Source of the DNA: Azolla caroliniana
Taxonomy: Eukaryota; Plantae; Polypodiophyta
NCBI GenBank assembly: GCA_043228905.1
Contig: JBHGNT010000003.1
Coordinates: 6,448,001 to 6,512,000, forward strand
Length of the DNA stretch: 64,000 nucleotides
Direction of reading: 5' to 3'
Below, piece after piece: positions 10,564 to 61,450 of the stretch (within the stretch, counting starts at the first letter, position 1; every line of letters begins with the position of its first letter). The position numbers and the translations under genes were made by a program. The notes below the pieces were generated by a model. It was not told where the DNA came from. It was given only the letters and a program-made list of their open reading frames with translations, and ran no database searches.

Positions 10564-13500
10564 GGAATGGGCTATTTGCCCCCCCATTTTGGCTATTTGC
10601 CCCCCCCCCCCCACCCCAAAAAAAAAGAAAAAAAAAACATTTTGGCCCCCTAACAAAGAGAAAAACTTTTTGGCCCCCCTATTTTTGAACGCGGAACTAG
10701 ATGACGATGATGGGGAAGGAAGGAATTCCTCATCGTGATTCTTATAATTATTGGTCTTATTGATCACTATATGGGTTTCTGCCATGGATCCACCAAAACT
10801 ACAGGCAACAAATGAGGGAAGAGGAAGAAGAAGAACACGTTGAAGATGGAGATGGAGATGTGAGTGAGTGACCAAGTGAGCGTTTATTTATATATATATA
10901 TATGCATCCACCAGAGAGATTCTCTTCTTTCACAAAAGTGAGTTCTCAAGATCAAAGGAGAGTCTTAGAGATGTCTTAGAGAAGATGATAGATAGATCTT
11001 AAACCAGTGGTTAAGTTTTGATGTGAAGCATGTTTTTAGAAATCAGGGAAAAGAGGGCCTCTCAGCCCCATAGAACCTCAATTGGTTACATGATGTTTTG
11101 ATCGATCTTGAATATCTCATTTTGTGGCCATCTTAAGGTCTCCATTGGTTAAATGAATTTCTAGGAATCTGTAATATCTCAAACACGATGGCTTGTGTTT
11201 CGCATGAATCTCTTATTGTAAACCATATTCTAATTTTCCCCTTACAATAATGTGATGTTAATAGTATGCCAATGCAAATTCATTGTCTTCTATATCATTT
11301 AATAACATGTTCATCATTCACCATCTTTTGTCACTTATATTTCAGTTTTGTTTAGCAATATTCACTGTTTGTTAGTTGTCTCTTATGTCTGGTGGTGGAA
11401 ACAAGAAACACGCAACTGAAATAGGTCTAGCTATGTCCATGGATCAAACAAAGCATTGTAACCCGAAACTTCTCTAAAGATACAACTTATGAGTCACGTA
11501 GGCAATAAAGTGGAGAATGTTTATATCTTCTTTCCCAATAACACTTACAACAATACCTTGTTGGAACAAATCTGCTTGTCTAAGACAAAGGCAGTCGTAG
11601 ACTAGAATTTCCAACAAGCTTATTCCCCAATGAATGATAGGGCATAGTTAAGTACGAGGTCCTTTGTTAAAACCGTGTTCCTCTTCCAGCGAGAGGATGC
11701 AAAAGAGATTAAACCAGTGACTTGTCAAGTGATTTGGTTGTTGTTGTGAAGTACCAAATAGCTAAAATGAGTTATATTAATGGAAGTCAAATACAACCTT
11801 CTTGGTATTACAAAAATAAAAATAAAAATTTGATAGTTCTCACCTCAACCAAAATGTTTTTGTGATATATATCAACTATTACACTTTACAACCTCATAAA
11901 AAGGTTTATCAACTATTACATAAAAAGGAATCGTTCTCAATAACATTCTTAGTACTGCAGGGGCAAATAGCCAAAATGGGGGGGCACATGCATATTGCAA
12001 GTGCGTGCATTGTGACCAGCTTGATCACATTTGGAACATTTGCGACCGGTAGAGTACTCAAATAGTGACTTCTCCCTTTGGTTGGCCTTTTTGTTCTTCG
12101 ACCCTGCAAGGCGACCTCGCTTCCTAGTTACCACCACTGGATTGGAGAGAGATTGCAGTGGTGCCTGACTTGCTTCATCCAATCGTGTCATGAGAACAAC
12201 AACCTGGTCATCGTCAGTTTCATACAATCTTTGCTTGATTTTCCTCATCAAACGCTTTATGGGAGACAAACATGGCTCAACTATAGAGGTGTGTTGAACC
12301 ATTGAACACGCAATCAAGTTCCATTGACAGTGAATATCTTCAAGATGGAATCTTTCATTTCTTTGGATGCATCTCAAAATGTCATGACAACATGGGACAC
12401 CAAAACTTGATCGAAACAACCCCGTATATTCATCACCATAATTGTTGTCAATAACTTTCTTGTACTACTCCAATAACTTGTCTAATGCGTGTTTGGATAT
12501 CTTCTTTACTAGCGGCAACATGAACTCGAGTGCATGTCGATGTGCCTGTGTAGACTTGTCATACTCCATTTTGGTGTTCAATTCCGTCAACTGTGTCCAA
12601 TAGTAAACGGATTTTCTTGAATACAGTGAGTAGATCATTATTTACAATGCCTAAAACCCTCTTGACAACATAATGGTTGCCTTCAATGCGAGAGGTGTAG
12701 GTCATTCCAAAGTGAGGGAAGCGACCAATCCAATAACGTACAATCTTGTCTTTGTGAATCAGCCAAGTCTCGTATACATACTGCACCAACGCATCGTGAC
12801 TTGGTCGCCATTTCATTTGAAACGTGGCCCAGTTAGCCTCAAAATCTAGCTCGCTGGAAGAGTATAGAAGCTGGTTCCAGTCGTCCATATAGGCGTTTGT
12901 GTTGTCGGTGCTTGCAAACTTCGTCGTTGCATAGGCCAGAATGTTTTTGTTGACATGCCAGATGCAAAGCAAATTCTTTGTAGAAGGGAACACGATAGCA
13001 ATTGCAGTCATCAATGCAAGTTCTCGATCAGTTACAATTACTAATGGCTTTGTCACAAATTCAAATGACTGCAATGCCCAAACATACATGGCTTCTGTCT
13101 CATTGCATATGAACGCAAATCCAACATTGAACGTACTATTTGTAGCCGTAATTCCAACGATGTTGAGCAACGGCATGCCAAATCTATTCGTTTTGAAGGT
13201 GCAATCCATGACAAATACCACATTGAACCGTCTGGCAAGATCTGCTGACTTTTGATGACAAAAGAAAAGGCTACTGATTGAGCCGTTCGAGTTCACCTTG
13301 GAATTGAAGATAAAGTCGCCAGTGGAGATCTCATCGTATAACACTTGAATTGGCGAGCGCCCTTCAAGAAACTCAACTCTTGCAACCACTTTTTTGTTGT
13401 GGATTTCTTTCCTGGTGGTCCATTGATTTCTGGTTTTTTCTCTCAAGTAGGCCAAAGTTGAAGCCGCACCAACTCCAGCATTTGCCATGTCGCGAACAAT

Positions 13501-13731
13501 GGTTTTTTCTGTATCAGTTAGTCTACGAGCCATTGATATACCACCAAGATTGTCAGAAATAGGATGATTGTGTACAATAGTTGCCTTTTTAATAGACCAC
13601 TGTCCCGTTTTCTTCGAGAAGTTTGCTCTAATGAAGAATGGGTGGTTTAGCCAAAATAGCCAAAATAGGGGGGCCAAAAAGTTTTTTTTTCTTTTATTTT
13701 TTTTGGGGGGGAGGGGCAAATAGCCCATTCC
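10564..13731 (-). mobile_element. Mutator-like element (MULE)
   Basis: TIRs GGAATGGGCTATTTGCCCC... / ...GGGGCAAATAGCCCATTCC; 9-bp TSD GTAGTTATG at 10555-10563 and 13732-13740; contains transposase. Confidence 0.95.
11949..13645 (-). pseudogene. MULE/FAR1-type DDE transposase, 5'-truncated, with a frameshift near 12570 and an in-frame stop near 12468
   Basis: HNHP, MDCTFKTN (D), IVTDRELAL (D), CIWH, TSRIEGNH (E), GVPCCH, RKRGR and the zinc knuckle CSKCDQAGHNARTC, split over two frames. Confidence 0.9.
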
Positions 13732-14969
13732 GTAGTTATGTTTATTTGTGCATCTTTGTGCACTTTCTATAGTAATGAAATGTATAACAATGAAGCATCA
13801 TATAGAGCTTTTCATTATTAAAATTTGTATGTCAAATGACATCTTTAAAAAATGCATGTCAAAAAACTTTAATACTAACCCGTCAAATTTAGACCCTGGT
13901 GACAATGTTTATACTTGTTAAATGTGTCGAACGTGTCAAACATTATTAAGTGGCAGTTCTGAATTATACATTACATGTAGAATACTCAAGTCAATTCTAA
14001 AACATATTCGAGACATAAAGTACACATTTTTTAACAACTATGAGTTAAACCAACATTAACACACTTAATCTACTACACCAATTAATAATAGATATATTCA
14101 TCCTATGATAATTGCTAGATAATAAATAGCATGCAATAAAGCAATTTAGCAATGCATGCTTAGCGATGAGTGATCTAGATATGGAAAATGTGCATGCTCC
14201 AAAAAACCTCCTTACTTCTTGTTGGTGTTGTTTCATTATATTTCCTACTTGTTCATTGCATTCATCGTGTAAGCAATGGAGTTTGTCATCCTTCCAGGTT
14301 GAGTGCACCTCCAGACCAACCCAATGAGAATCTATATCATCGTAATGTCGCAACTCTCAATAGGTGGTTGAAATTCATCATAAAGAGGAGTATGGGTCAT
14401 CAATCTACATAAGTTGTGGATAACCGTGACCTTGTTCACTAGCTCCATAGTATTTGATAAAACAAAGCAAACTAGTTTTGTTGAATATAGTTTGTTGGAG
14501 TAAGGTCTGGTTGAGGGCTCGAGTACGTATCGTAGTGACTTATGTGTGTTTAAAAGAAAGAGTGTCTAGGTTTCTACAATCTCGCAAAATGTAACTTTCT
14601 ACATATATCCTATGAGCCCTACAAATCATGGGACACCACATATGTATTCTTTCATGAAAGAATATGCTCCATTGCTATTAAAATTAAAGTGGCGAAAGGC
14701 AATATACAAAATAGTCCAATATTACAATGAATATTGCATAGTCGTGTTGAACGACCCTAGCCAACCTTTCATCACCATAACTTATTAGTTCAATGGACTA
14801 TTTGTCACAAGATGAGATGACGAAGCATCTCAGATATACAAAGTTATGGATCGATTGAGCAGGTTGTCTTAGCATTGCTTAGTCCAATTTACATCTTTAG
14901 TATTATTGGGCTTGGCTTCTTAAAATGGGTACTTACCATTACACCATGGTCTTTTGGAATAAATTCCCT

Positions 14970-15159
14970 ATAGACATTGGAATAGAAGATAAATTTACAA
15001 AGAATTCTTAATGAAATAGGCTTTTTGGGATTACTATGTAGATCAATTGGGGTAGGAATATTGTTCCACCATAGACATTGGAATAGAAGACAAATTTACA
15101 AAAAAATCATTATGAAATAGGTTTTTATTGATTAGTATGTAGATCAATTGGGGTAGGAA
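14970..15159. repeat. Tandem duplication, 101-bp period, overlapping the carboxylesterase stop codon
   Basis: ATAGACATTGGAATAGAAGA...GATCAATTGGGGTAGGAAT at 14970 and 15071. Confidence 0.85.
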
Positions 15160-16268
15160 TGTTTAGAGATGAAGCTAGCAAGGGCTCCTCGGAGTGCCGA
15201 GGATTCGTCCGGGGCATTCTCGGGGAACATGTGGAAGCAGTGCCCGACTCCCTTGGACTCGAAGTACTCCACGGAAGCGGCCAACGATCCGGAGGCCTCG
15301 GGCAGGCCAGTGTCCCGGAAAAGCCGGAGTGTCTCCACATATTCGGCCGCGCCAGCGAGTAAAGGGTCGCTGTCGGCCGCGGCCACGAGCACGGGTACGT
15401 CCGGGAGGTCGTGGATCGCTATCGAAGACTCAGGATGCATCGGGTTCATGAGTGGGTGCCCGAACTGCGCACCCTCCGGTAGGGCCGAGGTGTGGTAGAA
15501 TTGCACCCTAGCATTGCTAAGGTTGGCCGAGGCCGGGTCATAGGCGGGCCTCTCTTGAGGGAATGCCGGGTGCACGAGGAGTAGCCCCGCAATGGCCTTG
15601 CTGCCAATCTCTCCCGCCACGTAATGGACCATTGTCCCGCCCGCACTCTCACCGGCCACGAAAACCCTCCCGAGGTCTCCAATGCTTGACACCCACGGGT
15701 CATCGGTCTCCGAGAGCCACCGGAACGCGGACACCCCGTCGTCGTATGCGGCCGGGAGCTTATGTTCGGGTGCGAGGCGGTATGAGACCGACACCCACAA
15801 GCACCGCGTGGCCAAGCACATGGCGCGGCAAAAGCCGTGGGTGTGCGGGGCGGCTGGGCTGCCCACGCAAAAGCCGCCCCCATGGAAGTGTAGGACAATG
15901 GGCACTTTCTCGGGGGGTTCCATGCCAGAGAAGGTGGATTTGGGCCGGAATATGCGGGCCCACACGCCCGTGTCTGGGTCAACGACCACGTCTCGAGTCG
16001 CAACCCCGCTCTCGAGAGTGCCATAGGAGGATGGGACATAATGATCTATGCACCTCTCAAAGCTACCATCACTATACAAGGTTAGTACGCCTTCTTGGTG
16101 CTCCACCACCTCTCTCTCCGGAATACCCTTGGTCTATTATACATACCAACAAACAAGCAAACAAACAAATAGAGTCATTTTCCTTTCATAGAAGCACCAA
16201 TACATACATATTTAGTTAGCTACACAACCAAATACATAATGAATCGAGGGGTATTAGTCATATACCAT
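15144..16268 (-). CDS. Plant carboxylesterase (CXE; HSL-family alpha/beta hydrolase); main exon 16133-15144, predicted ATG-only first coding exon 16268-16266
   Basis: HFHGGGF, YRLAPEHKLPAAYDD, GESAGG nucleophile elbow, DSDPL Asp and GHCFH His; the start codon is inferred. Confidence 0.92.
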
Positions 16269-27000: not shown

Positions 27001-28725
27001 ATGTGGCATACTATAATACGTTATGGTGTTATTTAGCTAATTACTTTAATCCTATAAATCTCCAATATCTCCACACCACTCCCTTAGATGCATTTTTTTG
27101 TGTATCCAACGTGCAGCTCTGGATGGCTATAAATAGCTTGTAGATATGCGTTAACCCATATCATGTAGCCCTAGTTAGCGATCTTTTTTAAGCAAGTTAG
27201 CAACCTTTCTATGGATATCTTGAGGGTAAGCCATTTTTTATCCAGTAATAAAGGTGTCTTGATCATATGTCATTCACTCTTCACTTCGACTATTATGATT
27301 ATCATTTTTATGAAGATATCTGTTCATGGTGGTGGATGTATAATCAATGTATTATACTTTTCATTTGTTGGTCTAGTTTCAACATGCTACTTGTCAGGTT
27401 TCTTTTTTCAGTTGCAGTGGAAGTTATTGTTTTTTTTCATTCTAGTTATATTCTCAAATGTTCTATATTCCCATGCTTCCAGGTGCTAGATAATCAACCA
27501 CATGATCTTATTTACAAGGAGAATCCTGCCTCTGCCTGGATGGAAACTCGCCTATCAAAAGGGTATCATATCAATCGGACAAGATTTTATGCGTTGAAAA
27601 TATGTCATTTATAGGTTTTCAGCTCATTTACAGGCCAACATATGGCAAGCTGGTCGAAATGTATCAGCCAGTGAAAGATCCTCTCGTGCAGCGTTGCATC
27701 AACATCTTGGATTATGGATCAAAGCCAACACCGCCATGGTTGGTGACACTTAGGAGTATGGTATCAAACGTCATCCCTCTAAAGAAGAAAATTTGGATTC
27801 CTACTGCAACCTTAGTAAGTTGAAAAAGAAAACAAAACTATACCCAACAAAATAGTATCCTTCAAAGCCTGTAAAACCAAATGATGTTTTCTGGCAGCAA
27901 TTGCTAGAAACTCTGTATACATGTCGTCCGAACATGTCGTTGATTGTATCAGACTTTGATGCTCTTCCAGATGTCAAAGTTGATGGCGTTTGCGCTCCTC
28001 TAGTCTCTAGGAAGGTATTACATGTGTTTAATTATCCTTGCACAAAAACCTTTTACTATCATCACAAAATAGTTCATTATATAAGTTTATATTTGCTGGT
28101 GTGAAACCTTAATCCTGTCCCCTCTGCGTTTCTGAAATAATTAGAAAGAAACCTTCAAAGAAAGTGGGTATGGAGTATATATTATTCTCCTTCCATTAAT
28201 ATTCAAAAGCTAGTGTTTTCTTATGCGAAAATGATGCTTGAGCAGAAGGATGGTAGCACTGAAGACTTGAATTCATATCTTGATGTAAAGGCATGTCCCC
28301 TCTTTCACAACACAACATCCTTCTTCTTTCAGTTTAATTTTAGGAGGAAGATTATACTGACTTATCCTTTTTAATGTGTGTGGTGTCAGGGAGATGCAGA
28401 CATATTTTTCCCTACTGATTTTCACTTTCTAAGAAAGATGGATATTCATTGCTCCACTATATTAAACCAGGGCAGAGCAGACACTAAGAAAGGCTTCCAC
28501 CAGAATATAGTATTGAAAAAGAAAACTCTTTATTCATGTTTGATTTCTATGTTCTCTGTCTTTTTCCATTATTTATTTCATCTCTGAATTCATGTTTCAA
28601 AGGTTTCTACATCAAGTTTTATGAAGCGATATGCGGATATATCAAGGACGCAGACACAGAGTAGTTTTAACCCTCTCATTGACGACTATAGCAATATGAA
28701 GTTTTATCTTAGCCGACCGATATGA
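21091..28725 (+). CDS. NDUFAF7: Mitochondrial protein arginine methyltransferase, NDUFAF7/MidA family, 13 exons
   Basis: Exons read by eye: VRDFIHQALYDPQHGYFS (21498), SWFTPVELFK (22551-22633), PWYGYAL (23734), IFEIGGGTGTCAKNILDY (25254; SAM motif), SVEISRALA (26598), CFVIMLE/VLDNQPHD, LIVSDFDALPD, GDADIFFPTDF, FNPLIDDYSNMKFYLS; the Arg/Ser-rich N-terminus fits a transit peptide. Confidence 0.92.
24650..25005. repeat. Intronic minisatellite, ~58-60-bp unit, 5-6 copies
   Basis: Unit consensus approx. ATTGTCAGGATACCCTGAATGAAACTGTAAATTGAACATGTATATATTACCTAATTGTAA. Confidence 0.85.
25992..26652. repeat. Complex intronic tandem duplication including a partial copy of NDUFAF7 exon 6
   Basis: GAGATAAGCAGAGCATTGGCTAGAATACAACTC at ~26311 and ~26605; CAACATCCTGTGCTAG occurs three times. 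Confidence 0.9.
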
Positions 28726-29831: not shown

Positions 29832-30041
29832 CTGTTCATGACCATCCTGCAGCGTGCAGTATAATTCCAACCTTCAATGAAGGCCGACGAGCGATCTGAC
29901 AAGTTCCCTATAAGACGTTCATATATCTTTCTTCCTGCAGGGATATATGTGCTCACCCTTCTTGGTGGATATTTGAGTATGACACTTGAATTTTCATCCA
30001 TGTGTATCATATACTTCAGGGATGAAATATGGTTGGTGTGT

Positions 30042-32453
30042 TTATAAATCTAACTTCACTTCCTCTCTAGCATATATGTTTGACATCAATACATATGCAG
30101 GAACTTCCCTTGCATCATGATTGACTGCATGGTTAAAGACGTACTCGGCTAAAGATCTATTATTGTGTGTTTGACAAGCACCCAACAAAGATGACCAAAG
30201 TGTCGCATCCGGCTGCATTGGCATCTTCAGTAACATGCTTTCCAAACTCCTAAAATCTCCAGCTCGAGCAAAAATATCCATTATACCACCAAAATGCTTA
30301 ATCTCTAGAGTTATGCCATATTTGCTCATTGATGCAAAGAACTCCATGCCCTTGTCTATAAAGCCAGAATGGCTGAAAGCAAAAAACATAGAGAGAAAAG
30401 TGATCCCATCTGGCGCAACACCCAAAGCACCTTGCATTCTTTCGAAGTTCTCTAGGCATGCATTTAAGTTAGCATCTTGTGCATAACCAGCAATTAGGGA
30501 ATTCCAAGAAGTCACATCTTTTTTTGTCAATCGATCGAACACTGCTTGGGCATCAGGCATCCTTGAACAGCATCCATAGGCATGAAGTAACGTGTTTGCA
30601 AGAAGAGGTCTCTTGTCGTCACACCCGATGCACAAAACAATAACATGGATTAACCTACATAAACGTGAACTTCCTGAGGTTCCACTGCAAGCTCGCAACA
30701 TATAAACCAATGTAATATCATCTGGCCAAGGCCCTGCTTTAAGCATCTTTTCAAATAGTGCAAAAGCCTTCTCTTGTTGACCAGATTTTTCGACATATGC
30801 TGAAAGCATCGCATTCCATGACACTACATCTCGATGCGTAAGCTGTTCAAATACATTTTCTGCTTCTATAGTTGACCCACATTTCCCATACATCTTCACA
30901 AGGCTATTTCCAACAAATAAATGACAAGCCAAATGCATCCTTTTCGCATCATCGTGTAGGGCTCGGCCAATCAAAAGGGATATCAATCGGATGTGCGATT
31001 CATCCATCAATTGGCCTTTGTCCTTATCTTCAAGCAAGCAGCATGCTTGAAGGAATATTACAAAGCTCCATTGATCTGGAGTCGTGTATACTTGTTGCAT
31101 TACCTTATATAATTGTAAGGCCTTTACTATGCACCCTTGCTCAACATATGCCAATACCAATTCGTTCCATGAAATGCTATTTCGGTATTCATCCATGCCA
31201 CAAAACACATTCTCAGCTTCGGCAATGCTACCACATTTTGCATACATGCTCACAAGCACATTGTTCATATAGACATCGAACGCTGGGTCTTTTTTCTTTA
31301 AATCAGCATGCAAACCTCGTCCTATTTCCAAAGCAATTATTACTCTACTAAATGACTGGATATCCAACGTATCCGAATCTTCATTCCTTGCAAGAATACA
31401 GCATGCTTGTAAGGAAATAACAAAAGTACGTGCATCACAATATATACATTCAGCTTGCATTTGGTGAAACAGCTGAAAAGCCTTCATCACTAGGCCATGT
31501 TCTACATATGCTGAAAGCATAGCATTCCAAGACACAATGTTCCGGCAAGAAATCTCAATAAAAGCAAGCTCTGCTTCTTTGATGCTGCCACATTTACTAT
31601 ACATACCAATAAGAGCACTACCCACAAAGACATCTGTAATGAAACCACTCCTCCGAGCATCACCATGAATTTTTCTTCCTTGTTCCAAATTTGATGTACT
31701 GGCACAAGTTTTAGCCAAGGTAGCAAATGTGAATTTGTCCAGTTTCACGTCTTGCTTGACCATGTCTGCATACATTTTCAATGCTTCCTGACCCTTCTTA
31801 TGATCTGTAAATGATGAAATCATGGCTGTCCATGAGAACACAGTACGATGAGGAAGCCGATTGAATAAGGTGAATGCATCATCAAGGTTACCACATTTAG
31901 CTAATGTGACCACTAAATAATCACCAACAAAACTAGTCAAATCTAAACCATGTCGAGCAAGATGGGCATGTAAGATACCCAGATAATATGATCTCTTATA
32001 AATGTTGCATAACTTGAGTAAAGCCAGATACACATATTCCGATGGGAAAACACCATCATTTTCTATGTTACAAAAGTGATTGAACGAGGATTCAAGATTC
32101 CCTTGTTCACAAAGAGATTGAATTTGTCGGCCAATAGTTGCGAATTTGGTCCTCTTTGCCGAGTCGAGTTGCGGGAGGCTACGTTCAACCCACAATGGTT
32201 TTTGCTTATTATTAAGCCAAAGGGGCTGTCTTGAGGTCTTGTGTGTGAAATCTGGCTGCCCATGTCTGGTCTTGTTGAGCCTGTTGTCCCACCATTGAGA
32301 TGGGTCGGAGAAGAGAGATTCCCAGAGCTCTTCTGGAGGATGATGGTGATGGTGATGATGACGATGTATGTTGATGTGGGTGACTCTATGGTGGCTTGAT
32401 ATGCCTCTTGAGAACCCACTGTAGAGCTTCATACCTGATGATATGATGATCAT
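30042..32453 (-). CDS. Intronless PLS-class pentatricopeptide repeat protein with an N-terminal OSB-type PDF motif and a short E-type tail, no DYW domain
   Basis: Repeated MYAKCGS...A..VF, VSWNAMLSAY and PD..TF motifs; tail MPMQPDATLWSSLLGAC...AYVLMSNIYA; first in-frame ATG at 32453. Confidence 0.95.
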   Translation of the reverse strand: MIIISSGMKLYSGFSRGISSHHRVTHINIHRHHHHHHHPPEELWESLFSDPSQWWDNRLNKTRHGQPDFTHKTSRQPLWLNNKQKPLWVERSLPQLDSAKRTKFATIGRQIQSLCEQGNLESSFNHFCNIENDGVFPSEYVYLALLKLCNIYKRSYYLGILHAHLARHGLDLTSFVGDYLVVTLAKCGNLDDAFTLFNRLPHRTVFSWTAMISSFTDHKKGQEALKMYADMVKQDVKLDKFTFATLAKTCASTSNLEQGRKIHGDARRSGFITDVFVGSALIGMYSKCGSIKEAELAFIEISCRNIVSWNAMLSAYVEHGLVMKAFQLFHQMQAECIYCDARTFVISLQACCILARNEDSDTLDIQSFSRVIIALEIGRGLHADLKKKDPAFDVYMNNVLVSMYAKCGSIAEAENVFCGMDEYRNSISWNELVLAYVEQGCIVKALQLYKVMQQVYTTPDQWSFVIFLQACCLLEDKDKGQLMDESHIRLISLLIGRALHDDAKRMHLACHLFVGNSLVKMYGKCGSTIEAENVFEQLTHRDVVSWNAMLSAYVEKSGQQEKAFALFEKMLKAGPWPDDITLVYMLRACSGTSGSSRLCRLIHVIVLCIGCDDKRPLLANTLLHAYGCCSRMPDAQAVFDRLTKKDVTSWNSLIAGYAQDANLNACLENFERMQGALGVAPDGITFLSMFFAFSHSGFIDKGMEFFASMSKYGITLEIKHFGGIMDIFARAGDFRSLESMLLKMPMQPDATLWSSLLGACQTHNNRSLAEYVFNHAVNHDAREVPAYVLMSNIYAREEVKLDL

Positions 32454-32558
32454 GGTGGAGAGGAGAAGGCACCATGGTGTTAAGGCTGAGGAATGGCGGA
32501 GGAACTCTCTCTTTATAAAGCATTCTTCTCTGAGTATGCAACACACACAAACGCATAA

Positions 32559-32999
32559 CAATCGGGAACGGTTTGGTTCGGTTCGAGAGTGTCAAACTCG
32601 AACCGTTTAAAACCGAACCCTTTATAAAATCGAAACTTAAACCGAACCACAAAACCGCTTAAAACGAAACTGTTTAAACCGAACCGTTTCAAAAAATCCA
32701 AGCTCAAACCAAACGGTTTTAGATGCTTTCGAACCTTTAGTCCGTTAGACCGTTAAAGCCCCAATCTTGTGGTTCGGTTTTGGTTTTTAAGTTTAGTCAA
32801 AATTCAACATTTTACATTTAAAATTTTAAAATTTTGAATATTAATTTTTAAAATTGTTTAAACCGTTTGAGTCGCGGTTTCAAAACGTTTAAACTGAAAA
32901 ATGTTAAAATGTTAAACTGTTAAACTGATAAAGGCTTGAACCAAATCGAACCGTTTAAACCATTAAGCTACATTTCACGGTTCGGTTCATTGCTGATTG
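32559..32999. mobile_element. Probable non-autonomous DNA transposon rich in AACCG/CGGTT motifs
   Basis: Dense AAACCG/GAACCG/CGGTTC motifs at both ends, AT-rich core, weak terminal inversion CAATCGGGAA / TTGCTGATTG; no TSD found. Confidence 0.55.
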
Positions 33000-35942: not shown

Positions 35943-38484
35943 GTAAAACCTTTTCTTTGTCTCGAAGATATCTTGGCATTCAATTCTTGTCTCCTTCTTT
36001 TCTGCCATTCGTTTCCTGCGTTTTCTCTCTCGAATCGAAAAAATTACTAGATTTATCTATTCAGAGAACTTCATACCTAGAAACGGATGGTTCTATTGCT
36101 GCATTTAATTCCATATTTGATGGTCCTTTGTTTACATCTGGTGTATTAGCTTTACATTTTGGTGCTCATCATCTGCACATGAAGACATCAGTTATCCAGA
36201 TATTTGTACTATGTAGGAAGTGATGGCTGTAGATTCCACTTGTGTGTGTTAGCTTTACATCCTATATCCACATAGCTGCTAATCAAAACCTGATGTCAAA
36301 TTCTTGAGCTATGGTTGGGACATCACAGAGGTATTTGTGGGATGAATTGAGAGACACCCGATTGTTGGGAATGCCTAAGATCATCCTTATTGGAGGTTGA
36401 AAGACATAGAGCGAGCTTATTGAGGGGCTTGACTAATGGATTCTGAGAAATAAATTTGATGAACACCGGAAACAATCTATCTAATACTGAGAGAGATAAT
36501 GTGTGTCTTTCCTGTTTCAATGTCCTCTCTATCCCTTGATTGTAATTCTAGTTCATAGTGCAAGAATTCTAGTGATTCATTGACCTCGTTTTCATTGGTG
36601 GGAACAAGAAATGGTTCGCTGCAACTCTCACTATTTGTATATATTGATGGTTGGCATTTATGAAGAAAGTTGTAAAATTTGTGAAGAAAGTCCATTGATT
36701 CTCATTTTAGACTGAGGATTTAGTTCCTGAAACTGTCTGAAAAGTGCTTCAAGGCCGGTGATTATCGTCTCTACCCCTAATTCACAGACATAAGATTTAA
36801 CATATGCTTGAGAAGAGAGAAATACAAGATTTAAAAGAGCAGAGTAATTGTCCCCAAAGCTGAGCAACCCCAACTAGTATCAGGGGTCACGAGAAGTAGA
36901 TTTCAGCCAGCATAACACAATCCCAGGAAGCATGAACTTGCAGGAGCGTTGTTCTCAACTTTCCCTAATACCAAAAATCATGAAGATTTGCAGGATATTT
37001 TGAGGCACTCTAATTTCCATAATATATCAACAACATATTAGGGAAGTTCTAATTCTCGTGTTCAGCAAGTTGCAGATCAGAAACCCTAAATTTTAATAAT
37101 AATATAAACTGTGATTTGAGACCCTGATTTTGGGAATCTGTAAACTGCAGACTAAAGAAACCATCATTTATACTAATAATAAAAACATTTCAGAAACCAC
37201 TAAGTTTTGGTCTACCAAAATCACCAGAAACCCTAATTTCGGTGCTCTAGAAAAGTGTGGAAGAGGTTAACGCACTCTTGATGACTACATTTCCTCCAAA
37301 ACTGTTTTTGTTCTCGATATGTAAAGTATATCCTACCTATCACACACCTGATGATCATTAACAATCTTAATGCCTGCATTAACAATTATCATTAGGGGTC
37401 ACATGTGTACCAATCATGTACCCCATGATAACACATCTCATTTCTCCAGCTATTTATGCCAGTAAATATACCTGTTTGACCTGGAGCCTTCACACATGAA
37501 AATCTGAACGCATTTAATTACATTAATCCTAGGGCTAAGCACATTAATATATCTCTCTGAAGAAATAGTAGTCATTTCACTTCTTTAATGATAACCTTGC
37601 TCTTACACATTATGTTTTCAGTGCTGAACTAAAACTTGATGTAGATGCTTTTTGGCTGCTTGATGATTTATGTCATTGTTTGGATTAATTCATTTCGTTT
37701 GTTTTGACAATTTCCAAAGGACACCTACGTAGGAGCACTAATATAAACTGAAGAGTTCATTAATTGAGTGGAAGAGTGAACTTGCCTGAGTTGGCTGGAT
37801 GGAAAGACATCTTCTCCCACCATGTGAGAGGAGGTTGGGGTCAGATTAACTCTTTCACTATGCTTAAAGAGTTACATTATGAACTGGTGATTAGTTTTTT
37901 GGAAGATGAATCAAATCCCACTGTCCTCTCTACACATATCCTATTACATTTTCTCAGGTCATGTTATTTGGTGGTTCAGAACCCCAGCATGACATAACTT
38001 ATTGAAGAATCACATTGAAAAATGACAATTGTGATAAATGATATTTGATTTGATAAGGAAAGAACTGTCCCAATCTATCAAATTCTATTTCTCATGTATA
38101 TGAAAGAGACAGGACTTTATAGTCTCATCTACACATGAATACAAACAAGTTGTAGCTGGTTGGAAACTGTCGCATCACCATAACCATTTTGTATCCAGTG
38201 TTTATCCTATTTGGTGGATCTTATTCCTAGGTGTTTTTCTTCAGATTTAGGGCCTCCCCTCATGTGAATATTACCAAGTCCTTCAGGTTACTCAAATTTT
38301 CATTTTCATTTACTTGGATCGATGTCTACAAAAACAAACTAGAGACTAATAGGATTTACATTTGTATTTTACATGTTTATTGATTATTAGATTATTCCAT
38401 GGTTTTCCCTTGTGTTTAGGTTATGATGAAAATGCCAGAGAATTCGTTATTGAATTTACTGTCTGTTTTGTGTGCATGATGCAG

Positions 38485-40015
38485 AAACGAAGACTTTATC
38501 CAAAGAAATCACTATCATCAGAACCTAGTAAATGTGATGCCTCAGTGAAAAGGCTAAGATCTGCAATTTTAGTGAAAGAGGAGGAAGTTCTTGAATTAAG
38601 AGAAGAGGGTACATATCTAAGTAGACTTGCTGCAAGGACGATTCGGAAAGGTTTGCATTGTTTATCTTTGCAATTAACTATCCAATACTACAATCATCTC
38701 CGAAAAGAGACACATTCTACAAATAGAACCATATTGGAAGATGATAGGCTTTACCACTACATAATTTATTCAGAGAATGTTCTTGCTGCAGCAGTAGTAG
38801 TTAATTCTACCACTACCAATGCGAAGGTCACACCTATTCTTATTGCTTTTGCAATGGTTAATATTTCCAGGAGAAAACTCTGAATTACCCTGGTTTTTCT
38901 TTATTTCCCTGAATGCCCCTGAAGTTTCTATTAGTTCCCAATATACACTAGGTCAAACCCCTGTCTACAATTATGTAGTCAATTCACTCCATTTTCTCTC
39001 TTTTGGAGTTTGACCAGGAGTATGTGGGGAAAAATGGAAACTTACAAATAATTCAGATTGTTTTCCATATTTTTATTAACATTGATTGTTGGGTTAACCT
39101 AATATTCGTGCATTTTCATGGTTCCACATTGTTTTTCTATGCTACAGGAACCTCGCAGACTTGTTTTCCATATACTAACAGATAGCCTCAACTATGCTGC
39201 GATGCAAATGTGGTTCTGGGCCTATTCACCCGACAAAGCCACCGTGGAAGTAAAAAATTTGGACAATATTAGTGTGTCACACATTTTTGAGAAACCAAAT
39301 GAGCAAGCTAGGAGGAAGCAATTGCAACTTGATCCATTGCAGACTTCTGTTATGAAAATGGAAAAAGAAAACTTGGAAAAGCCACGAATACTAGACTACT
39401 TGCCTCGGGTCTTTCCCAAATTGGATAGAGTATTTCTTCTAGATGATGACATAGTTATTTTGAAAGACTTGTCCCCACTTTGGCAGCTGAAAATTGGTAA
39501 CAACATGATTATTGCTAGTAATTCATGTAAAGCAAGCCAAGATGATGGAGTTTGGTGGTCATGTGTAAACTTGGTCAATTTACGGAAATGGAGAACTCAA
39601 AGTCTCACAAAGATCAACCAATTTCCAGTGAGTCCATTCTCTGTCTGAGTTTGTATGTGCTTTAATTTTGCATGTGCATCTTTCTTTTTGAGTATATTGG
39701 AACTGTTGTTCTGCTTTGTATGATAACTAAGGTGGGAATTCCGTTATTTGGTTGTAGATTGATAGTAGCAATTTGAATCATCTCGAACGAGAGAAGAGTA
39801 ACATTGACTATGTGCTTCTTGATAATACGATCCATATATTCAATGTTGATGGAATGGAGGAGGTTCAAAATGATGTCAGGGATGCTGAAGTGGTTCATTA
39901 TGGAGGGTATGCAAAACCATGGCTAGAGCTCGGTATGGGGAGGTATAAATCATTCTGGACACGTTTCGTCAATTTCGACAATCCAATCTTACAAGAATGC
40001 AATGTTCACAAGTGA
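38485..40015 (+). CDS. Galacturonosyltransferase-like (GAUT, GT8), 3' exons 38485-38826, 39148-39627, 39758-40015
   Basis: LAARTIRKGLHCLSLQLTIQYY, NVLAAAVVVNST, LVFHILTD, YLPRVFPKLDRVFLLDDDIVI.KDLSPLW, VVHYGGYAKPWLELG; in-frame GT-AG joins. Confidence 0.88.
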
Positions 40016-41241: not shown

Positions 41242-42366
41242 CCTCTCGCTCTCTTATATGTATATATGTATGTATGTATGTATTATATGATTTCTTCTTA
41301 AGTGCTATTTAATGGCTTATCTATTTCAATGCATTGATCACACATATTATTGTATAACTACAATATAACGTTCTCAAAACTTGGAAAATCACATGATGAC
41401 AAATCAAACACACCTTATAAACACTTTTTTTATATGCATTTCTTTAGATATGCCACATGGTTAAAATTTGCATAGAAGGAAGAAATTAAAGCAAAAGAAT
41501 TTTGATGGGTCGAAATAGAGAAAATCAAACACACCTTATGCATTAGTACAATCAAAGAAGATCGGATGAGTATTGAGAAACAATTCAATGTGTGAGTCAT
41601 GAAGGCGTTTCTGAGTCACTAGATGCCAACTCCAAGCTAGGACACTCTATACTAAGCTTGGATATGAGCAAGAAAGAAACAACTCCATATCGCCAAATCC
41701 TTGAGAGCGGAAAACCCCGCCATCAAACCTCTAAGCACTAACGATGTCCAAATGAAGTAGAAAGAATTGCCTTCTATAGAAAGTGAGGCATGTTGTCAAG
41801 TTTGGATGGGCCCCTATCTTCATTGATGAAGACTTAACAAAGATGCAAATCAAACACATAAAACAGTATATGCCACAAATCATACGATCACACAAAGCAA
41901 TAAGGCTATTTACCATGATTTTGCATTAGTATCGATGTCTAGGCCATCAAGTAGGATTTCATTGACATGGACATCAAGTACAGAATACAATGTAGACAAA
42001 AGACAACAAATGGAGTCAAGATTACAAACAAGAGGAGTTAGGCTGGCAACTTCATGCATGCTTGTATAAACATTATTATAGAGGTAACCCATTGTTGGTG
42101 TTGATATTATTGAGAATTTATATGTTCAAACCTAAATATTTAATGGTACTATTGGCATGAAATGCATATATCCTAAAGGGACTTGAAAGTAATATATAAT
42201 TATCTATTGTCTAAATTGTAAATTTATTGTAATTGCACAATTTTAGATTATAATTTTATTTTTACAAATGACACAAAGTATGCAATTTATCTATGTTTGA
42301 AGTATTTAACAAATGCAAAAAAGCATATGTAAAATATTGTTCATTTGGGAGGTACTTGACCCGTAT

Positions 42367-43040
42367 TGTTGAAAAAACAGTGCTCGGCCACAACCGAGGA
42401 ACAGGATCGATTCACAGACAACGGGAAATACAAGAATGCACGAAAAACAATAGAGAGAAGGGTACACTGGATGTTTTACGTGGAAAACCCTAAATGGGAA
42501 AAACCACGGGAGTGCAAGACTCCAACTATCACTATACGCGGGGAATGTACAATGGCGAGCTGCAAGGCGACGACCTTGAGCTCGCTGTCCTCGCCACAGG
42601 CGGCGGTATTACACAGAGGCGTCGACCTCTTCCTTCCTCTTCCGCTCTCACTCTCTCTCGGCTGCTCTCACTTCGCTTCCTCTCAGTGGAAACAAGAAAA
42701 TAAGCAGCAACAACCAAAACTGTTTGCCCTAAGTCATATTTATACACATATGACTTTCGGGCTATTTACAAATATAGCCTCAAGGGCCCTTGGCAAACAT
42801 ATTCACAGATATGTCCCCACATCCGGATCTCTCTCCGGGTACATACGTCATCCGGCTCCGTAACCGGGGTCTTCATCATCCGGCTCCGTAACCGGGGTCT
42901 ACAGCATCCGGCTCCGTAACCGGGTACTCTTCATCCGGCTTCATGCCGGGTACTCTTCATCCTACGGTTCCGTAACAGCCTCCGGGCTTGCCGTCATTCA
43001 TCTCCGGACATCCCATCCGGAGGGACCGAAAATCCCAACA
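42367..43040 (-). repeat. 3' LTR of the copia element
   Basis: Matches 47112-47785; adjacent to the PPT GTGAAGGGGGAGTT (minus strand, 43054-43041). Confidence 0.98.
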
Positions 43041-43050
43041 AACTCCCCCT

Positions 43051-46000
43051 TCACTTCGGCATGGGATGTCTCTCCAATCCGATCCTCTTCCGGCATGCTT
43101 CCAGCTTGTCGGGTGTAAGTACCTTGGTCAGCATATCCGACCCGTTCTCGTCCGTGTGGATCTTCGTCAGCACGAACTCCTTGTCTTCTATCCATGTGAT
43201 AGGCCGCATTCTTCGCAAGGTGGATGGCACTCTGACTGTCGCAGTAGAGTCGGTACTCCTCCTGCCGGATACCGAGCTCTCTAGTGAAGTCCTTCATCCA
43301 TATTATTTCCTTGCCGGCTTCAACGGCCGCCATGTACTCCGCCTCCGTGGTTGACAACGCAACCGTCTTCTGCAGCCTCGACTGCCACGAAACAGCTCCC
43401 CCTGCACACGTCATCACATACCCTGATGTGGACCGGCTGGTATCTGCATCAGCCGACATATCCGAATCGGTAAAGCCGTCCAGTTCGGGCTTACCGGAGC
43501 CGAATCGGAGGCACACGTTTGCCGTGCCCTTCAGGTATCGGAGTATCCACTTGACCGCGTTCCAGTGCTCTTTGCCGAGATTACTCATATACCGGCTCAC
43601 CACTCCGACTGCGTATCCAATGTCCGGTCTTGTACACACCATTGCGTACATCAAGCTTCCGACGGCAGAGGCATATGGTACTTTCATCATGTCCTCCTTC
43701 TCAGCCTTTGTCTTGGGGCTTTGCTTGCTGGACAACTTGCAGTTTGCCGGGAGGGTTGACCCGACCGGTCTTGCTTCCGACATGTTGAACCGATGAAGCA
43801 CCTTTGTCACGTACTTCTCCTGTGACAGCCACAACTGCTTCTTCTTCCGGTCCCGAATGATGTGCATCCCTAGTATTTGCCTCGCCGGACCCAGGTCCTT
43901 CATTGAGAAGGTTCGGTGAAGCGCTTTCTTCAGTGTCCGTATCTTGACCTGGTCCCGTCCGACGATCAACATGTCGTCCACGTACAGGAGGAGTATTAGG
44001 GAGTCTCCTCCTTCGAACTTCTTCACAAACACGCAGTGATCAGACTGCGTTTTGTGGTACCCTTCGTCGGTCATGAAGGAGTCGAACTTGCGGTACCATT
44101 GCCGGGGAGCCTGCTTCAGTCCGTAAAGGCTCTTCTTCAACCAGCATACCAGGTGCTCCTTCCCTTTCTTCTCGAATCCTTCCGGTTGCTGCATGTAGAT
44201 CTCTTCTTCGAGGTCACCGTGAAGGAATGCCGTCTTCACGTCCATCTGTTCTACCTCGAGGTCCATGCTTGCCGCTATGCTCAGCACCGTCCGGATGGAG
44301 GTCATCTTCACTACCGGGGCAAATATCTCGTCGAAGTCGACGCCCTTCTTCTGCTGAAACCCCTTCACCACGATCCTGGCTTTGTATCTCGGGGGGTTTC
44401 CGGCATCTCCCGGTTTCAGCTTGAACACCCACTTGTTTCGAAGTGCCCGCATTCCTTTCGGCAACTCCACCAGTTCATATGTGTGGTTCTCATGCAGGGA
44501 ATCCATCTCCTCCTGCATGGCACTTAACCACCTGCGGCTATGGGTGTCAAGCTTTGCTTCTTCAAAACTCTCCGGCTCCCCTTCGTCGGTTAGCAGCACG
44601 TGCTCTGGTTCCGGAAATCTCCGGGGGGCCCTTCTCTCTCTTAGAGGATATCTCCGTTCCGGAGCTTCGGTAACCGGTTCTTCCGATTCTTCTCCATCCG
44701 AATCCATTTCGGGATCGGGGCCGGTTCCGGTATCATTTTCATCTTCTTCGGCCGGTTCTGTTTCTTCACCGTCTTCGGCCGGATCCTCGAGTGCTAACCG
44801 GTCCCTTGCCGGTCGGGACTGCTCCTCGTAGAGTTGATCCTCACCGGTCGACTTGGAGCTCTTCATCTTCTTCTCCGACTCCCAGTCGGCAAGTGTCTTG
44901 TTCTCCATGAAGATGATATCACGACTCCGGAATATCTTCTTGTCGACCGGGTCCCATACTCGGTAGCCAAACTCGTCGTCGCCGTAACCGAGGAATATGC
45001 ATGGCCGGGTCTTTGGATCTAGCTTTCCTCTCCGGTCCTTTGCCACATGCACGTATGCGAGACACCCGAACACCTTCAGATGCCGGTAGGATACTTCCCT
45101 ACCGGTCCACACTTTCTGCGGCGTGTCTCCGTCCAAAGGTACTGAGGGTGATCTGTTTATCACGTATGTCGCCGTTGACATTGCCTCAGCCCAAAACCCC
45201 TTGGGTAATTCCGCATGCGCCAGCATACTCCGGACCCTCTCCATTATGGTCCGGTTCATCCTCTCGGCCAGCCCGTTCAGTTCCGGCGTCTTCGGCACAG
45301 TAAACTCGAGCCGGATTCCCTTCGAGCGACAGTACTCCTGGAACTGCCCCCGGTATTCCCCTCCGTTATCCGCTCGTATCGCTTTCAGCTTCTTGCCGGA
45401 TTCCCTTTCCACTCTCGCGTGAAGTTCTTTGAAGACGCACAACACTTGGTCCTTTGTCTTCAACGGTGCCGTCCACAGCTTCCGGCTGTGGTCATCAATG
45501 AATGTCACGAAGTACTGGGCTCCGCCATGGGACTTCGTTTCTACTTGACACACGTCAGTGTGCACCAACTCCAATGGTGCGCTACGTCTCGTCGGTGGCC
45601 TTGAGTGGAAGGAGGTCCGGTTTTGCTTACCGGCCAGACAGTCGGTGCACTTCTCCAGGTGCACATGCTTCATTGGAATAAGGTTGTCTTCTGCAAGCCT
45701 CTTCATCCCCTTCTCACTCATGTGGCACAGTCTCTTGTGCCACAGCTCACCGACAGTGTCGGCTGCCACGTTCAACTCTTCCGGACACAACCAGGCATTC
45801 ATAAGGTACAGTGTGTTGACTTTCCGGGCCCGAGCCACTATCAGGCTCCCCTTGCTGAACTTCATTACGCCGTTCCGGATGCTACCTGTGTAGCCTTCAT
45901 CGTCTAGCCTCCCGGCCGAAATCAGGTTCAATCGAACCTCCGGAACGTGTCGGACATCCTTCAGCAGCATTTTGCATCCGGTCGGGGTTGTCAACCACAC

Positions 46001-47080
46001 GTCTCCTATGCCGGCAATCCGGCACGTACCTTCATTTCCCATCCGAACACAGCCAAGCTCACCGGCTGTGTAGGATGAGAAGTATCTTCTTTCCGGAGTC
46101 AGGTGGAACGACGCTCCGGAATCGACCACCCAGGTAGTCTCATCGCCGGCAATGTTTAGTTCACCTTCTTCGGTGATGAGCATGATCTCCTCTTCACTTG
46201 CCGCGAGTGCCGTCGTTCCTTTCCGGTCCTGCCCTCGCCGATCCGAACCTCTCCGGTCCGTGGCTCCCCGGTATGCACCGTTTCTCTCCGGTGACTTCTT
46301 CGAATCGGTGTCGCCGTCTCCGTTGTCCTTTCGGTAATGCCGACAATTCTTCCGGAAGTGCCCCGGCTTCCCACAGTGGAAGCATGTGGGCCTTCCTCTT
46401 GACTGCGACCGGGTCCCCGACTTCTCCCGTCTTTGCGGACTCCGGTTCCATTGTCTTCCCCGATCCGATTCGGTAAGCAGCATCTTCGGATCGGAGGCCG
46501 GTTCTTTATCTCTCCGACGCGCTTCTTCGTTCAAAATACTTGTCTTTACCGTTTGTAGGGACAAGTTTTCTTCGGTGCAGGAGGTGCTGAGAGTCACCAC
46601 CAAGTTCTCCCAGCTTTCCGGCAATGTACACATCAGGATGATGGCTTGCATTGCATCCTCCAACGGGAACTTGATCGCCGCAAGCTGGTTCACGAATCCC
46701 ATGAACGTGCTTACGTGTTCCACCATACTCTCGCCGTCCCGGTACTTGAGGTTCACTATCTTCCTCATCAGGGAGGTCCGGTTCAATGCATTCTTCCTCT
46801 CGTAGAGGCCCGACAGCTTCCGCCACATCTCATAGGCGTTCGTATCGTTCGCGACATGTTGCAGAACACTTACATCGACATATTGCTGAATCGTGGCTAC
46901 GGCTTTCCGGTTCAGGAGCTTCCACTCCGACTCTATTACCCCCTTGGGTATCTCAGCATTGTCGATCGGTTCGTACAGGTCTCGAACGATGAGAAGGTCT
47001 TCCATCTTTATCTTCCAGTCGGCGTAGTTCTGTGAGTTCAACACTATCATGCCCGGAGACCCACTACCGCCGCCTTCCAT
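43051..47080 (-). CDS. Copia gag-pol polyprotein with a frameshifting deletion in RNase H near 43195
   Basis: CFHCGKPGHFRKNC knuckle, WVVDSGAS protease, LWHKRLCH...CTDC, VHTDV / RADNGGEY / NGLAERMN integrase, YVDDML RT, EAEY RNase H; the terminal KIHTDENGSDMLTK is in another frame and ends at 43051. Confidence 0.95.
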
Positions 47081-47096
47081 CTTCTGTGTTAACCTG

Positions 47097-47108
47097 GCTC
47101 TGATACCA
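47097..47108 (-). other. Primer binding site complementary to the initiator Met tRNA 3' end
   Basis: TGGTATCAGAGC on the minus strand, 3 nt from the 5' LTR. Confidence 0.95.
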
Positions 47109-47111
47109 CTT

Positions 47112-47785
47112 TGTTGAAAAAACAGTGCTCGGCCACAACCGAGGAACAGGATCGATTCACAGACAACGGGAAATACAAGAATGCACGAAAAACAATAGAG
47201 AGAAGGGTACACTGGATGTTTTACGTGGAAAACCCTAAATGGGAAAAACCACGGGAGTGCAAGACTCCAACTATCACTATACGCGGGGAATGTACAATGG
47301 CGAGCTGCAAGGCGACGACCTTGAGCTCGCTGTCCTCGCCACAGGCGGCGGTATTACACAGAGGCGTCGACCTCTTCCTTCCTCTTCCGCTCTCACTCTC
47401 TCTCGGCTGCTCTCACTTCGCTTCCTCTCAGTGGAAACAAGAAAATAAGCAGCAACAACCAAAACTGTTTGCCCTAAGTCATATTTATACACATATGACT
47501 TTCGGGCTATTTACAAATATAGCCTCAAGGGCCCTTGGCAAACATATTCACAGATATGTCCCCGCATCCGGATCTCTCTCCGGGTACATACGTCATCCGG
47601 CTCCGTAACCGGGGTCTTCATCATCCGGCTCCGTAACCGGGGTCTACAGCATCCGGCTCCGTAACCGGGTACTCTTCATCCGGCTTCATGCCGGGTACTC
47701 TTCATCCTACGGTTCCGTAACAGCCTCCGGGCTTGCCGTCATTCATCTCCGGACATCCCATCCGGAGGGACCGAAAATCCCAACA
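47112..47785 (-). repeat. 5' LTR of the copia element
   Basis: One difference from the other LTR seen by eye (47564 G vs 42819 A). Confidence 0.98.
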
Positions 47786-60879: not shown

Positions 60880-61450
60880 CAGTCCAGGAATAGGTCTCTT
60901 GGAATTCTCTGATTGCAAGATATGATGAGAATGGGAAATTTCATTAAGTGCTCAATCAAATCTATTAAACGAAGGATTCATGGCAAGCCATTGTCTTACA
61001 CAATACATGCTTGGGAAGGATAGTCACTTCCTTTCCATCAATTTGTATTTTGTAGTTGATATGTTTTTTAAAACTAATGGAAGGATATATTTTTTTGGAA
61101 GAAAAAAAGACTCTAGAAATACAAACGTATGCCAAATGTGGCATGTTGAAAACTACACATCAAGTGTTGCATCATATTTGTATCTGTGTTGTGGCCTCTT
61201 GGAATGCATTGATTGGGGTGAGGCCGAAGAAGCAATGAGATGCTTCAACGAAATGAAATTCAAGGATATCCCTCGTAATGCTTTCACTTTCTCATGTATC
61301 TTGAAAGTGTGTCGCAATGTTTGGGCCCTTCATGAAGGAAAACATGTACATGATGAAATTATCCATAAGAAGTTGCTTGGAAAGATTTTGGTGCTTGGCA
61401 CGGCTTTACAATATTCATTATAATATTGGACTACTTTGTATATTGACTAT
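60880..61450 (+). pseudogene. PLS-class PPR gene relic
   Basis: SWNSLIARY, YAKCGML, VASWNALI, EAMRCFNEM...NAFTFSCILKVC...GKHVHDEI in broken frames. Confidence 0.75.

Follow-up and report, generated by a model that had tools for sequence, protein, structure and literature searches.

What does a motif of DNA-binding proteins do at the head of an RNA-editing factor? The question is raised by a minus-strand gene in a 64,000-nucleotide stretch of Azolla caroliniana DNA, analysed here as a whole (the window), where a preliminary description had recognized the PDF motif of OSB proteins, which bind single-stranded DNA in plant organelles, ahead of a PPR array. We conclude with high confidence that the gene has this layout, a PDF motif before a PLS-type array, and that the layout is spread across seed-free plants. 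The domain combination is real, old and apparently undescribed; each of its parts is known, and its function is one that we infer below.

One reading frame joins the PDF motif to the PPR array

The minus-strand stop-to-stop frame at 30042-32591 is open over 849 codons and holds both the motif and the PPR array, with no stop and no frame break in between. The preliminary description had called the fusion in frame and free of introns, which agrees with this result; its quoted peptide, LWES...PLWV, spans residues 89-135 of that frame (window 32187-32327) and lies inside the interval in which it had placed the motif. The only plausible start codons are Met47 (window 32453) and Met54, both N-terminal of the motif. 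A translation start C-terminal of the motif is ruled out: after Met54 the frame has no Met before residue 257, which lies within the fourth repeat. From the first Met, a single-exon coding sequence of 803 aa (30042..32453, minus strand) comprises a leader, the PDF motif, the PLS PPR array, an E1 motif and a truncated E2 motif.

The leader of 40 residues (32334..32453, minus strand) ends in a His7 tract (32340-32360) and is likely an organellar targeting peptide, with which its composition (6 Ser, 3 Arg, 1 Lys, 11 His and no acidic residues) and its amphipathicity (hydrophobic moment of up to 0.66 across KLYSGFSRGIS) are compatible. It is also predicted to be disordered, with pLDDT <50 at model residues 1-37. 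The His tract had been pointed out before, but the accompanying label of a Ser/Arg-rich leader fits less well than one of a His-rich leader. Upstream of Met47, at a distance of 22 bases, an out-of-frame ATG in strong context (ACCATGG) opens a 29-codon frame (32386..32475, minus strand) that overlaps both candidate starts and may damp translation of the PDF-PPR frame. Contigs of two related organisms (runs X2 and X3) span this ATG without any listed change.

The gene is continuous in related organisms. One contig of 2612 bases from a related organism (run X2) spans 30011-32484 whole, differing in 115 letters and gapped at 6, and the stretch 32040-32520, which includes the PDF-PPR junction, shows no joints in any of four runs. 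The comparison runs of related organisms are not on record as RNA, and taking X2 for RNA would be a guess. A gene-model chimera or an assembly join was considered and is ruled out by the single frame, the single contig of a relative, the jointless junction in 4/4 runs and more than 100 similar fusions. In all four runs a second contig carries a different PDF-coding stretch at window 32270-32305, so those plants have at least one further PDF gene, either an OSB or another fusion.

Across three related organisms, the three changes listed for residues 87-135 are all synonymous, and those listed for residues 136-184 comprise nine non-synonymous and five synonymous changes (Fisher p 0.0014 with a border chosen after the data had been seen; ~0.04 with the border at 87-142 and estimated site counts). 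The resulting signal of selection on the PDF stretch in the relatives rests on three changes, with 1-5 differences per contig missing from the change listing, and is suggestive only.

A PLS array with a truncated end

The array (30207..32138, minus strand) consists of 18 PPR motifs arranged as P-L-S, P-L-S, P-LL-S, P-LL-S, P-L-S and P2-L2-S2, as obtained from Pfam matches (PPR_2, E 4.8e-65) and borders set by hand. The class names (P, L, S, P2, L2, S2, E1 and E2) follow PPR nomenclature. In the hand parse the first P motif is degenerate and two L motifs hold 16-18 extra residues. A Foldseek search with the full model, which is built of helical repeats, returned as its best match 9kfx, a synthetic PPR-DYW protein bound to RNA (E 2.3e-22). 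The window protein is a PLS-class PPR protein, with tandem P-L-S triplets closing in P2-L2-S2. Counted from motif 4 on, nine of the ten P and S motifs carry pairs that are canonical in the PPR code, and the array would presumably read a U-rich site, roughly G-n-A-U-n-Y-U-n-U-U-n-U-U.

The array is followed by an E1 motif and an E2 motif that ends after ~20 residues (30045..30206, minus strand; Pfam and hand parse), with no E+ or DYW part. Pfam scores the E_motif at 18.5 bits, under its cut-off of 27.3, and E1 is recognizable in the hand parse. The stop follows the short E2 motif; Pfam gives no DYW match in the protein, and inspection by eye of the three minus-strand frames over ~1.5 kb beyond the stop revealed no DYW-like text. 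The window protein is thus outside the DYW subclass. Lacking a deaminase domain, it would provide no more than an editing factor's specificity half and is likely not self-sufficient. The preliminary description had not mentioned the missing DYW domain, and its reading of the protein as an editing factor needs amending accordingly.

The PDF motif is of the OSB type

The motif occupies residues 87-143 (32163..32333, minus strand). An HMM built exclusively from OSBs (44 PDF segments from 23 proteins named OSB1-4 by their sources) scores it at 58.3 bits, with E 3.7e-17 against 1531 six-frame window segments, which is a test of family identity rather than an independent discovery, since the 23 OSBs had been retrieved using the window motif or its relatives. 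The next-best window segment reaches 5.5 bits and the best of 1000 motif shuffles 10.9 bits. The motif also keeps all 14 positions that are conserved in ≥90% of 116 OSB-type motifs; a motif of this type comprises ~50 residues with the Pro-Asp-Phe signature and conserved Trp, Asp, Arg and Lys positions. These results confirm the OSB-type motif that had been described at 32175..32330. Chance resemblance to PDF is ruled out by the score of 58.3 bits vs. the shuffle maximum.

A phmmer search with the 56-residue motif yielded 537 representatives at E ≤0.001 among 1.84 billion, including an OSB1-like protein of Populus nigra; another cluster has Lupinus OSB3-like members. Among the best 150 of these 537 matches, 27 have a Pfam SSB match, 12 a Pfam PPR match and none both (E ≤1e-4), and a local PPR profile lifts the number of PPR carriers to 14. 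AlphaFold2 predicts the PDF motif alone as a compact, small helix-sheet-helix domain (mean pLDDT 91), and in the full protein the domain follows the disordered leader at pLDDT 83-92, its last helix lying 4 residues from the first PPR helix.

No Pfam family covers the motif and PHROGs holds no match to it, a PDB sequence search gave a single row (E 1.4), and an ESM Atlas search with the homologue P0116 gave no usable match. Fold searches with the PDF model produced nothing clear (Foldseek best E 1.3; VIA-align best Z 3.3), from which neither a new fold nor an absence follows, and a predicted PDF homodimer scored 0.00, which is no answer and counts as evidence for neither side. Prokaryotic genomes contributed just one partial match of 21 residues. 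In the dinoflagellate Effrenium voratum, proteins (P0022 and its cluster) contain as many as nine PDF-like stretches without matching Pfam SSB or PPR, in contrast to a 2014 review, which restricts PDF motifs to green plants (PMC4166229). Protein P0130 (ENA, 8 cluster members) has a SUV3 helicase C-terminal domain followed by a PDF motif, a second instance of this motif joined to what is likely an RNA-processing protein. Protein P0145 (ENA, 185 aa) carries a single C-terminal PDF motif and matches neither Pfam nor PHROGs.

The window protein resembles AtOSB1-4 in its ~50-residue PDF motif with every near-invariant position in place and in its likely organellar leader, and its relatives carry 1-3 PDF copies, as OSBs do. 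However, OSBs have a central OB-fold/SSB-like domain, whereas the window protein has no Pfam SSB match at E ≤1 and no OB-like sheet outside the PDF motif in the predicted full model. The PDF motifs of OSBs are also C-terminal, whereas that of the window protein is single and N-terminal (87-143 of 849), the remainder being the PPR array. The window protein is not an OSB.

PDF-PPR fusions form a family in seed-free plants

Both PDF and PPR are present in 107 of 300 PDF-bearing proteins pooled from the listed matches, a pool that left out 49 cluster-member isoforms and whose fusions include many close paralogues, so that the counts are not independent. The co-occurrence that the preliminary description had put forward as a check is thus real, and the fusion is no peculiarity of the window gene. 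All PDF motifs precede the array in 106/107 fusions; 75 fusions have one copy, 24 have two and 8 have three. The sole fusion with a PDF motif also inside the array (residues 680-734) is Diphasiastrum P0212, likely the product of a tandem duplication or of a merged gene model. A C-terminal deaminase signature occurs in 36 of the 107, so the family includes complete editing enzymes. Four full-length fern-type fusions with inspected ends (P0128, P0140, P0013 and P0211) resemble the window protein in having no terminal DYW domain. None of the 107 matches simple KP-type patterns that would link the family to U-to-C editing, and the window protein is without a catalytic end.

These fusions were recovered from mosses, liverworts, lycophytes and ferns. 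With a Sphagnum query, 54 of 60 candidates matched, and each of these 54 combines PDF with PPR; they belong to several species of Sphagnum, to the liverwort Calypogeia fissa, to Diphasiastrum and to rows without a name. A search with the region gave one match among 11 candidates, a Diphasiastrum protein with two PDF motifs before a PLS-E array. Fern fusions come from Adiantum capillus-veneris and Pteridium aquilinum, and four of those from Pteridium bear what we read, from their format, as transcript-assembly names. A profile of 20 PPR-linked motifs found 427 proteins, the best 120 of which include 44 with PPRs (41 from Diphasiastrum complanatum); among the same best 120, the 50 rows bearing seed-plant names include no combination of PDF with PPR. 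The top matches of each search thus suggest that the fusion is absent from seed plants.

A 210-motif tree places 91 of the 94 PPR-linked motifs in one group, weakly supported (support 89, below the 95 mark, from 57 columns), and the window motif stands beside those of Adiantum and Pteridium and one unnamed motif (support 93). The nearest PPR part is that of an Adiantum fusion, at 41% identity; both placements make a fern origin of the window likely. Taken together, the sequences point to a large, old family of seed-free plants that likely dates to early land plants. Alongside the core aromatics, the basic residues Arg22, Lys25 and Lys36 of the motif are kept in 93-98% of the 94 PPR-linked motifs. 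Counted from the PDF motif's last conserved Trp, a landmark in repeat 1 lies 27 residues away in 51 of the 93 fusions that could be measured, 36 residues away in another 26 and 26 residues away in the window protein; this near-fixed spacing may stem from shared descent.

One explanation for such a pattern would assign the motif no nucleic-acid role: it would have arrived once with an OSB-derived targeting exon, would cap or solubilize repeat 1, and would have spread by duplication. The single group in the tree fits one origin followed by amplification, the predicted last PDF helix lies within a few residues of the first PPR helix, and seed plants apparently manage without the fusion. However, retention of the three basic residues besides the core aromatics is not what a cap would call for, tandem copies cannot all cap one repeat, and the motif has been kept across mosses, liverworts, lycophytes and ferns. 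We therefore regard a structural cap or passenger as distinctly unlikely.

A possible role for the PDF motif in editing

The closest counterparts of the array are the E-type PLS factors that rely on a trans-acting DYW donor (CRR4 with DYW1, the partners of DYW2 and MEF8, and the DYW-less PLS proteins of Salviniales), which show the same P-L-S and P2-L2-S2 motifs, E1, truncated E2 and lack of DYW, and with which the window protein also shares canonical code residues. Some editing factors of Arabidopsis are split into an array and a trans-acting DYW donor (PMC10226603), and in Salviniales ferns PLS arrays far outnumber full-length DYW proteins, for which trans donors have been proposed (PMC12548569). 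In known editing PPR proteins, as described in one source, nothing but an unstructured targeting peptide precedes the array (PMC10226603), whereas the window protein has a folded extra domain there. PPR4 (RRM), PPR-SMR, OTP51 (LAGLIDADG) and the NYN and SAP types follow the same plan of a PPR array with an accessory nucleic-acid module, and the RRM of PPR4 is likewise N-terminal. These proteins, however, belong in the available accounts to the P class and act in splicing or processing, whereas the window protein is of the PLS class.

We tentatively favour, with somewhat less than even confidence, the reading that the protein is an editing specificity factor with a DYW partner in trans, whose PDF motif would grip single-stranded nucleic acid, most likely RNA just upstream of the PPR site. 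Its frame runs from PDF through PPR to E1 and a short E2. The leader would import the protein into an organelle, with mitochondria somewhat likelier; the array would read a U-rich site ending four bases before the edited base, by the PPR code; and catalysis would be supplied in trans by a separate DYW or DYW:KP protein. The N-terminal PDF motif would face upstream RNA, where, gripping without sequence preference, it could add affinity or hold the site unfolded. In seed plants this job would fall to separate helpers (MORF, ORRM). The orientation follows from the reported placement of editing arrays 5' of the edited base, their last motif lying at -4 (PMC10226603), so that an N-terminal PDF motif would face the upstream RNA. 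Motif identity, full retention of conserved residues, the spread of the fusion, the position of the PDF motif, the near-fixed spacing, the canonical code pairs, the deaminase signatures within the family, the selection signal, the trans-acting DYW donors of other plants, the ssDNA binding by the PDF of AtOSB1 and the helpers reported missing from Physcomitrium all count for this reading. Against it stand the ssDNA preference of AtOSB1 and AtOSB2, a fused motif whose unaltered conserved positions give no sign of a switch to RNA, and the strong out-of-frame ATG upstream of the start.

The preference for ssDNA leads to a close rival, which the preliminary description had already raised. The PDF motif of AtOSB1 alone is reported to be enough for ssDNA binding (PMC6963530), and whole AtOSB1 and AtOSB2 to favour ssDNA over dsDNA or RNA (PMC4166229). 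If the fused motif keeps this specificity, as its unchanged OSB-conserved positions would allow, it could hold the editing factor on single-stranded organelle DNA, in transcription bubbles or on the displaced strands of R-loops, and bring about an early meeting with nascent transcripts. The reported accumulation of R-loops at some repeats in osb1 mutants (PMC8330923) and the abundance of RNA-processing proteins in nucleoid proteomes, which fits co-transcriptional maturation (PMC3555230), are consistent with such a tether, as are the two or three PDF copies in 32/107 fusions, as in OSBs. However, the rice editing PPR protein OsPPR16 is reported to co-localize with nucleoids (PMC7689822) and the fusion is missing from all 50 rows with seed-plant names, so the PDF motif is probably dispensable for reaching the nucleoid. 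A short, near-fixed link to repeat 1 would also better suit a ligand continuous with the PPR-bound strand. We consider the ssDNA tether possible if somewhat unlikely.

In a third explanation, the PDF motif would be a protein-interaction module that couples the DYW-less protein to its catalytic partner or to OSB-coated DNA. The four fern-type fusions that end without DYW would indeed need a partner. However, a third of the family has its own deaminase signature, the PDF motif sits at the array end farthest from the edited base, and ssDNA binding is the only function that the available parts of two sources report for the motif (PMC6963530, PMC4166229). This makes an interaction module very improbable.

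Gripping RNA, as in our preferred reading, would bear on how editing is assisted outside seed plants. Angiosperm editing is assisted by MORF and RRM proteins (PMC10226603), and Physcomitrium is reported to lack ORRM1 and the remaining non-PPR helpers (PMC9459714). A folded OSB-derived domain before the array would then be a component of editing that has gone unnoticed where seed-plant helpers are reported missing, as in Physcomitrium. Single PPR-DYW proteins are reported to carry out editing with no helper, both in bacteria and in vitro (PMC10226603), so an extra grip is not required generally. A broader scenario, which we consider rather doubtful, is that early land plants evolved editing factors whose own ssDNA-binding domain tied editing to the organelle chromosome at transcription bubbles or R-loops. 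Mosses, liverworts and clubmosses would then have multiplied this class into dozens of genes, and seed plants would have lost it when MORF and ORRM took over. The PDF-PPR combination, kept in mosses, liverworts, lycophytes and ferns, would tie organelle genome maintenance to RNA editing. The fusion makes it testable what aids PLS binding without MORF or ORRM and whether editing couples to transcription, and a 55-residue affinity module could serve synthetic PPR editors.

The preliminary description knew of no functional account of this fusion, and our literature search likewise found no description of the PDF-PPR combination; most subscription papers lay outside that search and may hold a prior mention. 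Domains added to PPR proteins of Physcomitrium, as given in one published list, are RRM, LAGLIDADG, SMR, NYN, CBS and SAP, with PDF not among them (PMC9459714). A 2026 survey of 182 OSB genes does not mention PPR in its main text and retained a protein only if PDF and an OB fold occurred together in it (PMC13393729).

Other content of the window

Elsewhere in the window, the minus strand carries a 1451-codon frame (42360-47608) that by eye we take to be a Ty1/copia-type retrotransposon polyprotein; near-identical LTR-like repeats flank it. Further minus-strand frames at 11949-13797 resemble, by eye, what we take for a MULE/FAR1-type transposase. By eye, we assign the remaining features to a presumed CXE-type carboxylesterase (15144-16133, minus strand), an exon of a presumably NDUFAF7-like methyltransferase (27856-28104, plus strand), exons of a presumably GAUT-like glycosyltransferase (38353-39648, plus strand), a presumed H+-pyrophosphatase exon (52283-52771, minus strand) and what appears to be a PPR fragment (60929-61423, plus strand).
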